Assembly (NCBI GenBank): GCA_963662625.1 | Contig: OY759726.1 | Span: forward strand, 224,001-288,000 | Reading direction: 5' to 3' | DNA length: 64,000 nucleotides | Source of the DNA: Nitrosopumilus sp. | GTDB taxonomy: Archaea; Thermoproteota; Nitrososphaeria; Nitrososphaerales; Nitrosopumilaceae | Shown: positions 4,790 to 47,500 of the stretch, one piece after another | Layout of the letters: each line of letters starts with the position of its first letter | How positions within the stretch are numbered: the stretch's first letter is position 1 | The notes under the pieces: model-generated | Database searches by the model: none | What the model was told of the DNA's origin: nothing | The model's input: the letters and a program-made list of their open reading frames with translations, nothing else | Position numbers and translations under genes: made by a program

Positions 4790-5020
4790 TCACCCGGCGC
4801 CGCCAATGGCGCGCCGCTCCAGGGCGTCCCGGGCGTCCAGCCTGGCGCGGGCCCTCTCGATGTCATCTTCCAGGACTTTCCTGGTGGGGTACTTGATCTG
4901 CCCGCGGCGGAGGCGCGGATCCCATGTCCAGAACGCGCCGCCGCCGTCGCGGATGTAGCGCCTCCCCTCCCCGTCCTCGTAGATCCGGTGCGACTTCAGG
5001 CACCTGAGCCCCGAAGGCAT
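4790..5020 (-). CDS. Hypothetical element protein (76 aa)
   Basis: Coupled start/stop with neighbours in the element operon. Confidence 0.5.
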   Translation of the reverse strand: MPSGLRCLKSHRIYEDGEGRRYIRDGGGAFWTWDPRLRRGQIKYPTRKVLEDDIERARARLDARDALERRAIGGAG

Positions 5021-44750: not shown

Positions 44751-45397
44751 TACTCTGCTTCCGGCCCGGGCTATTTATTCTGACGCGGGCGCCCAGTCAA
44801 GCGAAAAGTACGCCAAATGGCCAACCGCCGCAATTCCAGACAGATCAGCTTGGGCGGGCCCCGGCAAGGTTTGAATTGTCTCGAAGCAAGACCCGCCAGG
44901 GCCGCGACATGGTGAACGGCCCCCGCCCATATCGGGGCGTCGTCTCCGGCACCTATGTTAACCGCCCAGGCGCAGTTGCCGCAATGCATCCCGCGGCTTT
45001 TCCGATCCGTGCCTGGGTTGCATGGCATGGGATTCACGGATGGCGCCGGCAAGGCGGTCCGGGATGCGGGCGGCGCCGGGGGCCGCCCCCGGCGCCGCCT
45101 TCCGGGCCTTCCTCCCCGCCCGCCTGGCTTCCTTCCATCCCGGCGACTTGGCCGACGGCGGGGAGCGGGCGTTCCCGCAGTGCGCGGGGCGGGCCCGGGG
45201 CCTCCTGGTTTCTGCCACCGCCTCCCCGTATTTTGACTTGATCGAGCCGGCGACGCCGGGCGCGAGTGCCAGCAGGCCCCCCGGCTGCCTGGTCGTTCTG
45301 CGCCTTGCCACGCACGCACTGGCACCCCCTGCAGCAAGGATCGGCAGGATCGCGCCTTGCTGGTTAAAGGGTCAGCACGCGTGACCTCATACCAGCT

Positions 45398-45506
45398 GTC
45401 GTAAAAATCGCTTAAGTGTGGTGGTGTTGTTATCCTGACTTCCGGGTGGCCCTCCAGCCAGTCCCCGTAGTCGTAAAAATCGCTTAAGTGCGGTGGTGTT
45501 GTTATC
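45398..45506. CRISPR. Orphan CRISPR-like mini-array: two 37-bp repeats, one 35-bp spacer (alternative: duplicated promoter)
   Basis: GTCGTAAAAATCGCTTAAGTG(T/C)GGTGGTGTTGTTATC at 45398-45434 and 45470-45506 (1 mismatch); unrelated spacer at 45435-45469; no cas genes in window. Confidence 0.4.
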
Positions 45507-45512
45507 AGTGCA

Positions 45513-47500
45513 ATGGACAAAGCCATGCTTATCGGGCTATCGCTTTTTCTGGGTGTCGGTATGGCCGCCGCGTCATCGTCGGCGGGCATCCTGTCACCAC
45601 TGGCGCAGTACGACTCGGGGGTGCCGATGCATGGCATACAGTGCAGGGATTCAAGGGTGCTCATGGAGACCCTGCGGGGGACGCCGGCGTGCGTATACGG
45701 GGATTCTGCGGTGGTGATGCAGCATAGGGGCTGGACGCCCGTGGAACCGGGACTGGCCGGGGCCGCGCAGCAGGGTGCAGAACCGGGGGAGCCTGCCCGC
45801 GCCACGCATGGCGCGGGAGGGCAGGGCCCGGATGCGCGGTACGTGACAGTGCCGGAACCCGCGCATGCCGGCACGTCATGCGGCTTTTGCCCGGGGATAC
45901 TCCTCCTGCCGGAGCTGCCCCTGCTGGGAGAGGACGCGACGATCACGGTGACGATCAACGAGGGCAACGGCGGGTACCTCCCGGTGAGGGACGGCCTGTT
46001 CCTGGAGTTCTTCTCGTACCCGCCGGGAGCCGCAGTGTTCCCGGAGCTTGACGTGGTGCCGATGCCAGGCTGGTCCGTCCAGGACGGAGGCGCCCCCGGG
46101 AACCCCGACGTGCCCAGCATCAACGACGCGTACGTCATGCCCGTGACAGGCCTGCCGCCCCTACCCGAGTACCCGGACGCCAGCTTCACGACCAGCCTCA
46201 GGGTGGTGGAGCCCGGCGCGGTCGCGATAGGCGCCAGGGTGTTCAGCTACGGCGGCGAGTGGCCGGTCGACGCGACCCTGACCGACACCCACGAGATTGT
46301 ACGGCTGCAGGACAAGCGCCAGACCTACGGCGAGCACTCGCTGGACATGATCGTCGGCCCCGACGAGACGAACTACTACGATCCGCGCCTCACGGTGAGG
46401 GCTCCGCTTGCGACCGACCGTGAGGTGCTGGAGTTCCGCGAGTTCGTAGAGAGGAGGGGCGGCATAGGCCCCGAGGTGACCGCGCTTTGGGAGGCCAACG
46501 CCAAGAAGGACATGATGCGCCTAGAGGGGATCTACACCGAGGAGGAGGCAGAGAGATACCTGAACTTTGTAACCCGTATCCACAGGGGCTACGGTGAAGA
46601 AAGCATCCCGTGGAGGGAGGTGGAACAAGACAGGCTTTCTGACGACGGCTACATCGCCCAGCACCTAAGCGCAGAAAGAAGCGTGGAGGAGAACCCGATG
46701 CAGAGTTGGGCCAGCTTCTACCGTTACTTCGACGGCCAGGACGGGTGGAACGACGGCTTTGGCAGCACGCTTGGGCAGATCAGGGAATACCTGGCCAAGG
46801 ACGGGTACATGACCGCGCCCGAGATAGACCGGTACGTCGGGGAGTACCTGGCCGACGACTTTTCCGGCGCCCAAAACTTTTCCCCCGGGCTTGATTTTCT
46901 GCCCAGGGCATACGCGGCTCCCTTCATACACCTTGAGGGGCGCACCCATGTGTAAAAGTCACCCGCCGACAACACGGATGCCAACGACTCAGGCCCGGTA
47001 CACGGCATCGAGGTCTGCGCCCAAAAGAAAACACCCACAGGCTACCAAACGCTGACAGATAGAAGCGGCAACAGTGCGTGTGATGTTGCAGACGAAACAG
47101 GCAGGTTTGTGATTTGGAATGCACGCATCGGAACCAGCCCAACCACGTTATCATGCCTGATCCATACTGGTACAAGCAAGCAAAAAAACGACGGCAACCC
47201 ACACGTCAAAGTTCTTTACAAGACCAACGACGGTGGATTTGCCCACAACACCCCGGATCGTGCAAATACCAGCTCCGGCCACGACTTGGGGACGTACACG
47301 ATACCTGCCAACTCGAATTTGCATCACGCGTCGTATGTCATAGACGCAATCGAGGACGCGTGGAAGTTCTTCGATGACGGTACCCCGGATTTTAGGCCAA
47401 CATGGGACAAAGGAGATAGGGTGACGGTGTACATAGCGCCATCTGAGAAGAACTCCGCGCATTACACAGTAGGCACCAAACAGATTCACATTCTAGGCGG
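45513..47500 (+). pseudogene. Large secreted protein, frameshifted at ~46950 and truncated by an IS fragment
   Basis: Signal peptide, thaumarchaeal SPLxQ..C..PACV..RGW domain. ORF 45513-46955 continues in another frame to ~47500 (DAIEDAWKFF..AHY..IHI, metallopeptidase-like). Confidence 0.6.

Follow-up and report, generated by a model that had tools for sequence, protein, structure and literature searches.

Integration of spacer-sized DNA outside a CRISPR array has been described for Escherichia coli over-producing the type I-E Cas1-Cas2 proteins, where off-target integration gave rise to neo-CRISPR loci (Nivala, Shipman & Church 2018, Nat Microbiol 3:310; as related in passages of 10.1101/148544, PMC7054753 and PMC9456107). 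For two other species, the corresponding passage of 10.1101/148544 speaks of 'circumstantial evidence' only. The off-target events in E. coli are guided by IHF-like sites, according to an excerpt of PMC9456107. As regards type I-U (now I-G) systems, the sections of Almendros et al. 2019 (PMC6547450) dealing with Cas4/Cas1 report a predominant spacer length of 36 bp and the PAM TTN. The term 'ectopic' acquisition is applied in the relevant part of PMC8047081 to integration at interior repeats of an array; therefore, we use the term 'off-array' for the events described here. Finally, casposons are integrated by a Cas1-like casposase, that is, by a Cas1-family integrase that generates a target-site duplication (excerpt of PMC5137440). 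Natural off-array integration at the scale described below, or in Thaumarchaeota, was not encountered in the open-access literature text that we searched.

Here, we describe a repeat-spacer-repeat unit in the genome of a Nitrosopumilus species, which we interpret, at a probability of about 0.88, as an off-array ('off-target') spacer integration by the type I-G module of the host that duplicated a promoter. The observations that carry this reading are the geometry of the unit, the presence of the integrase gene, about 30 sister units across the genome, the copied inserts of many of these and the empty sites of six.

The unit is located within a window of 64,000 nucleotides. The genome consists of one contig of 1,858,698 bp, in which the unit is found at C1:269398 (C1 coordinates correspond to the window coordinate plus 224,000). 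It comprises two 37-nt direct repeats, termed R1 and R2, which differ by a single mismatch (T/C at repeat position 22) and flank a 35-nt insert, resulting in a period of 72 (Table 1). This geometry, including the uniqueness of the spacer, had been proposed in the original prediction and was confirmed by the repeat search, which yielded two matches in the window at up to three mismatches, and by shuffling, as none of 100 shuffles gave any match. Likewise, the predicted GC counts (15/37 for the repeat and 24/35 for the spacer) agree with the computed fractions of 0.41 and 0.69, the reverse strand of the insert indeed reads YGDWLEGHPEV, and the distance between the second repeat and the start codon proved to be right. 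The bases flanking the two copies differ on both sides (t versus a on the left, C versus A on the right); therefore, 37 nt represents the full length of the repeat. Moreover, the repeat starts with G and ends with C, so that G is the first base on either strand. Genome-wide, the repeat is represented by R1 and R2 only, and the insert is present a single time.

Table 1. Position of the unit and of its neighbouring features in the window
Feature	Coordinates	Strand	Remarks
Dispersed MITE-like element C	45066..45392	.	end ...CTCATAC, 5 nt before R1
R1, upstream copy of the 37-nt target-site duplication	45398..45434	+	TAAAAAT at 45402-45408, CTTAAG at 45411-45416; putative core-promoter copy
35-nt insert ('spacer')	45435..45469	.	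69% GC; canonical spacers measure 34-40 nt
R2, downstream copy of the duplication	45470..45506	+	TAAAAAT at 45474-45480 (-39 to -33 from the ATG), CTTAAG at 45483-45488 (-30 to -25)
Downstream gene, 480 aa	45513..46955	+	hydrophobic N-terminus; member of the high-GC3 ORF set; starts 6 nt after R2

Assembled contigs from the runs X1 and X2 of one study cover the unit without any difference; therefore, the unit is real and not a slip of the assembly, albeit with support that is not independent, since these runs may include the genome's own sample. A version of the locus with a single repeat was found neither in relatives nor in contigs derived from reads: the region 45398-46400 has no DNA match in 40 relatives, an exact search for the repeat pattern in genome contigs and one for the junction between R2 and the ATG in metagenome contigs were both negative, and none of the contigs of three runs from one study joins across the unit, contigs being a material that drops rare variants. 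The three runs contain the stretch as contigs in every case, and none of the runs listed for it is an RNA run.

The earlier statement that cas genes are absent is correct for the window; the genome, however, encodes a complete type I-G system at C1:1.67-1.70 Mb, 1.4 Mb away from the unit. The sole Cas1-family gene is a Cas4g/Cas1g fusion on the minus strand (C1:1694210-1695874), which is full-length, contains no stops and matches the Cas4g/Cas1g profile NF049935 with 727.6 bits (cut-off 560, E=8e-219). The fusion is adjoined by Cas2 (31.6 bits, cut-off 24.5), and two type I-G effector sets (cas7, cas5/6, cas3) are present at C1:1.669-1.684 Mb. These cassettes lie side by side at C1:1668958-1683794. 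Between the effector sets and the adaptation genes, a single array (C1:1683977-1693743) comprises 135 repeats of 36 nt and 134 canonical spacers with a length of 34-40 nt; its periods span 70-76, with 22 spacers at period 71, 41 at 72, 44 at 73, 17 at 74 and 8 at 75. The 37th base is a C in 67 of the 134 repeat-spacer units. The plus-strand text of the canonical repeat starts with G, and so does the other strand whenever this 37th base is C. At the low-coordinate end of the array we observed an AT-rich stretch with a degenerate repeat remnant. In addition, the genome encodes an archaeal AmoA (E=2e-117), and the host is therefore an ammonia-oxidising archaeon.

The dimensions of the unit match those of this array. 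The duplication of 37 nt corresponds to the host repeat of 36 nt plus the half-conserved 37th base, the insert falls within the length range of the canonical spacers, and the period of 72 compares to array modes of 72-73. As the sizes are those of the host type I-G array, the non-CRISPR guide-array system that had been put forward as one option for the locus is not needed.

Repeat-spacer-repeat geometry with the right sizes would likewise be displayed by a working mini-CRISPR array or a regulatory crRNA-like unit, the spacer of which guides an effector, for example in gene regulation. A promoter within R1 could transcribe the spacer, and the plus strand of the repeat has a weak fold (-4.7 kcal/mol, z=-2.0). 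However, the repeat lacks the 7-bp stem of the canonical repeat, which forms a hairpin of -9.7 kcal/mol on the minus strand, and it is identical to the canonical repeat at 13 of 36 positions, as compared to a control mean of 13.7. In Rfam, the repeat of the unit matched none of the CRISPR-DR families at E<=1; for the canonical repeat, by contrast, a weak match to CRISPR-DR16 was obtained (21.4 bits as compared to a gathering score of 35, E=0.017). The distance of the unit from the cas locus and its flanks, which bear no likeness to the array leader, argue in the same direction, as does the search for a target of the spacer, which was negative for the genome, for 60 family genomes and for viral, metagenome and genome contigs. 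Furthermore, the roughly 30 sister units described below all have different repeats, which no single Cas6-type nuclease would recognise. This part of the original prediction is thus not supported, and we consider a guide-producing unit extremely improbable. Returning to off-array integration, no crRNA would be made from the unit, because the duplicated stretch has neither the sequence nor the hairpin of the canonical repeat. Judged by these sequence features, the unit probably represents a fossil of imprecise integrase activity rather than a gene for a guide RNA.

Direct repeats with two copies no more than 200 nt apart were sought across the genome, and pairs with a repeat of at least 24 nt and a gap of at least 10 were retained as isolated pairs. 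Outside the array, 64 isolated pairs were obtained, 28 of them with periods of 69-74, as compared to 0-3 for any other single period. For isolated repeats with a length of 33-42 nt, 23 pairs have periods of 69-74, and all remaining periods between 43 and 200 together account for 5. Hits that are not isolated add six units, among them the locus C1:463591-463770, where three repeats enclose two spacers. The total amounts to 30 inserts at 29 loci, counting u631904, which has an apparent repeat of 31 nt and for which a protospacer and an empty site are present. Hits with periods of 75 or 150 in genes of the leucine-rich-repeat type, other tandem coding repeats and three weak pairs (u208439, u506436 and u749136) were left out.

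The duplications of the sister units have a median length of 37 nt, and their 'repeats' are related neither to each other nor to the CRISPR repeat. Accordingly, the mean best identity of the target sites to the canonical repeat is 13.5/36, as compared to 13.7/36 at 5000 control sites in non-coding DNA. At 27 of 46 pooled sister-unit junctions the first duplicated base is G, which is the only signal that marks the off-array targets here. The flanks of the unit set resemble the leader marginally (8.5 versus 7.8), a difference confounded by composition. With respect to a crude set of high-GC3 ORFs covering 67% of the genome, 26 of the 29 units show no overlap with an ORF, two overlap partially and one lies inside. 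The window unit fits this class in its duplication of 37 nt, its insert of 35 nt, its period of 72, the G at both first positions and its non-coding location; its target, in contrast, has a lower GC content (41%) than that of any other unit (50-97%). In 16 of the 29 units the repeat copies contain no mismatch, and the single mismatch between R1 and R2 suggests that the window unit is not among the youngest of the set. In the locus at C1:463591-463770, three repeats of about 36 nt are spaced at periods of 72 and 71, and the repeat shares an 11/12 stretch with the canonical repeat. This locus may represent a site that was used twice, and hence a nascent array.

The presence of only two copies, both in non-coding DNA, would be in keeping with a local tandem duplication, with slippage during replication of the promoter region or with chance. 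Slippage, however, cannot yield the excess of periods 69-74 (23 versus 5), and a tandem duplication would repeat the 35-nt segment as well, whereas the sequence 3' of R2 is unrelated to the insert; the spacer is therefore not local flanking sequence that was copied by a simple duplication. The result of the 100 shuffles argues against chance. Among the alternatives considered, we regard this one as the least credible, and spacer integration remains the preferred reading for the unit and its sisters alike.

The inserts provide a further line of evidence. Ten of the 30 have a second copy in the genome that is 97-100% identical and covers no less than 85% of the insert, and two more match partly. 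The inserts of the sister units are all different and contain no terminal inverted repeats. A TTN motif is found beside 5 of 11 off-array self-protospacers and beside neither of the two canonical ones. Six units are located in multi-copy elements, the paralogues of which carry the repeat once and without an insert, and thus represent the empty site. The gaps in the respective alignments (74, 70, 73, 72, 72 and 72) equal the period within a few bases. These empty sites show that a piece of about 35 nt was inserted together with a target duplication of about 36-37 bp.

Among the canonical spacers, only 2 of 134 have a self match. Both of them, C1:1692138 and C1:1693522, are located near the leader end and match the host chromosome exactly, with no TTN at the protospacer; they may be tolerated. 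The self-protospacers cluster at the sole orc1/cdc6 gene (Cdc6_C match at C1:840385-840648): three of them (C1:839509, C1:843614 and, matched by a canonical spacer, C1:838035) are found no more than 4 kb from the gene, and 7 of 14 lie within 110 kb (region C1:816000-926000). The cluster may reflect an origin-proximal hot spot of spacer capture; from the GC skew of the genome, neither an origin nor a terminus is clearly apparent.

Insertions with duplications of about 36-37 bp could also be generated by another mobile-DNA enzyme, be it a casposase, a transposase or an unknown integrase, or arise as filler during break repair. The genome is rich in dispersed repeats, with multi-copy DNA within 250 bp of 13 of 27 units, and 5 nt separate the window unit from a MITE-like element upstream of it, which speaks for this reading. 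Yet the only Cas1-family gene is the cas4/cas1 fusion, and therefore no casposase is present. Casposons, moreover, extend over kilobases, are bounded by terminal inverted repeats and generate duplications that are much shorter. The inserts, all different and devoid of terminal inverted repeats, are copied from scattered genome sites, their sizes and those of the duplications track the spacers and repeats of the array, and TTN is enriched beside the self-protospacers. The insert in the window, being unique in the genome, is not a recurring element as would be expected of a transposon or casposon, and a fixed duplication of about 36 bp is not expected of break-repair filler. Taken together, the activity of another enzyme appears unlikely, and clearly so, and we attribute the insertions to the type I-G module instead.

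A protospacer had been sought in vain by eye in the window, and the genome-wide BLAST of the insert yielded no second copy either, the best other match being 20/22 nt. A source was likewise not detected beyond the host. The exact 35-mer was absent from the viral contigs, a codon-wobble pattern was not found in viral, metagenome and genome contigs, phage and plasmid collections gave chance-level matches only (22-24 nt, E 0.3-0.4), and 60 family genomes contained no copy at up to three mismatches.

A Cas4g/Cas1g protein above the cut-off is encoded in 10 of 81 family genomes, counting the host genome, G000. A 400-kb sample of G080, a relative from another genus with a type I-G system and a 36-nt repeat, contained two clean units (37/35 and 36/36), whereas a 400-kb sample of G003, in which the same search gave no Cas1 match, contained none; with one genome and 400 kb per class, this comparison is a pointer rather than a test. 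A third hit with a period of 72 in G080 lies within gene-internal repeats. In the same-genus genomes G001 and G002, identity drops to about 65-80% in coding DNA, and intergenic stretches can hardly be aligned. At the sister unit u103299 the alignment with G002 fits a single copy, but is too diverged to be counted. The gene downstream of the window unit has only distant relatives at the protein level, and therefore there is no comparable promoter.

The duplicated stretch precedes a gene for a protein of 480 aa that matches no Pfam family and, in a protein atlas, only low-score hypothetical clusters from Nitrososphaerota. The proposal of a BRE/TATA-like box at the expected distance from the start codon appears reasonable in view of the genome-wide pattern. 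Upstream of 794 ATG starts without an alternative in-frame start, the A/T content reaches 0.54-0.60 at positions within -33 to -24, and TTTAAA, TTAAAT, TAAATA and TAAAAA occur there 26, 26, 27 and 23 times, as compared to 3, 1, 4 and 6 times further upstream. Such an A/T peak is the pattern expected of archaeal TATA boxes in front of leaderless or short-leader mRNAs. The repeat carries CTTAAG in this interval and TAAAAAT just upstream of it (Table 1), which argues that the duplicated stretch is a core promoter. Judging from these motifs, R2 probably serves as the functional core promoter of this gene, and we infer that R2, and possibly R1, drives its expression. A possible transcriptional side effect of the integration is that it made two copies of the core promoter 72 nt apart. 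Two other off-array units are located at gene starts, one of them 11 nt upstream of a gene and the other with an overlap of 14 nt (C1:1481869 and C1:1020047), and therefore hits in promoter or start regions are not unique to the window unit.

Further upstream, the intergenic DNA (44786-45392) is made up of dispersed MITE-like elements that abut or overlap, three in all (44786-44951, 44949-45103 and 45066-45392) and each present in about 6-15 genomic copies, and contains a perfect 15-nt palindrome at 45069-45099. The flanks of the other copies of element C are unrelated to R1. A search of the unit region against Rfam gave a chance miRNA match inside element C only.

Off-target integration of the Cas1 type with duplication of a promoter had been among the options of the original prediction, and is strongly supported by the genome-wide evidence. 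According to the mechanism that we propose, the Cas4/Cas1 fusion and Cas2 would carry a prespacer of about 35 nt. Instead of the leader-repeat junction of the array, the integrase would attack the two chromosome strands about 36-37 bp apart within the core promoter of the downstream gene. Gap repair would then copy the 37 bp between the cuts, resulting in the order promoter, insert, promoter. By analogy to the sister units, the window unit would have arisen in the same way.

We lean, if only slightly, towards a more general proposal, in which the putatively active CRISPR integrase acts as a recurrent natural mutagen in the host and, less strongly, in one or more type I-G relatives; about 30 off-array insertions would have been fixed in this genome. 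Because off-array units would not be expressed as guides, they would preserve naive adaptation in unfiltered form, with about a third of the record self-derived and a hot spot at orc1/cdc6, and such insertions could duplicate promoters and seed arrays. So far, off-target integration has been shown mainly in E. coli over-producing Cas1-Cas2; the present genome contains about 30 natural events, several of them with empty sites and sources. These events make testable the fidelity of Cas4/Cas1 in vivo, the marks of off-array targets, the sampling of self DNA without autoimmune removal and the birth of arrays. For the gene at 45513, a tandem promoter resulting from integration would represent a simple route by which a defence system rewires expression.

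The closest described counterparts, as far as the cited passages portray them, are the neo-CRISPR loci of E. coli, with which the units share spacer-sized DNA outside the array, the duplication of a target of repeat length and a 'repeat' that is not a CRISPR repeat. They differ from these loci in that they arose naturally, in an ammonia-oxidising archaeon and with a type I-G Cas4/Cas1 fusion, that they amount to about 30 in 1.86 Mb, and that many inserts are self-derived and empty-site paralogues are available. The IHF-like guidance outlined for E. coli has no visible counterpart at the window unit, which has no leader-like flank. Canonical type I-G adaptation, in the portion of the work that we cite, resembles the present case in the fused Cas4/Cas1 together with Cas2, in sizes (spacers of 34-40 nt in the host array, an insert of 35 nt) and in the TTN found at 5 of 11 protospacers, but it uses the leader-proximal repeat, whereas the target of the window unit is a promoter 1.4 Mb off that is not repeat-like. 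In ectopic acquisition, as defined in the passage referred to above, the integrase likewise leaves the leader-adjacent site; there, true array repeats are used, and here ordinary chromosomal DNA. In contrast to casposon integration, a second Cas1 gene is missing from the genome and the insert is only 35 nt long. The mechanism is thus of a kind known from the E. coli experiments, and what is notable is its natural occurrence in an archaeon, with about 30 instances in one genome.
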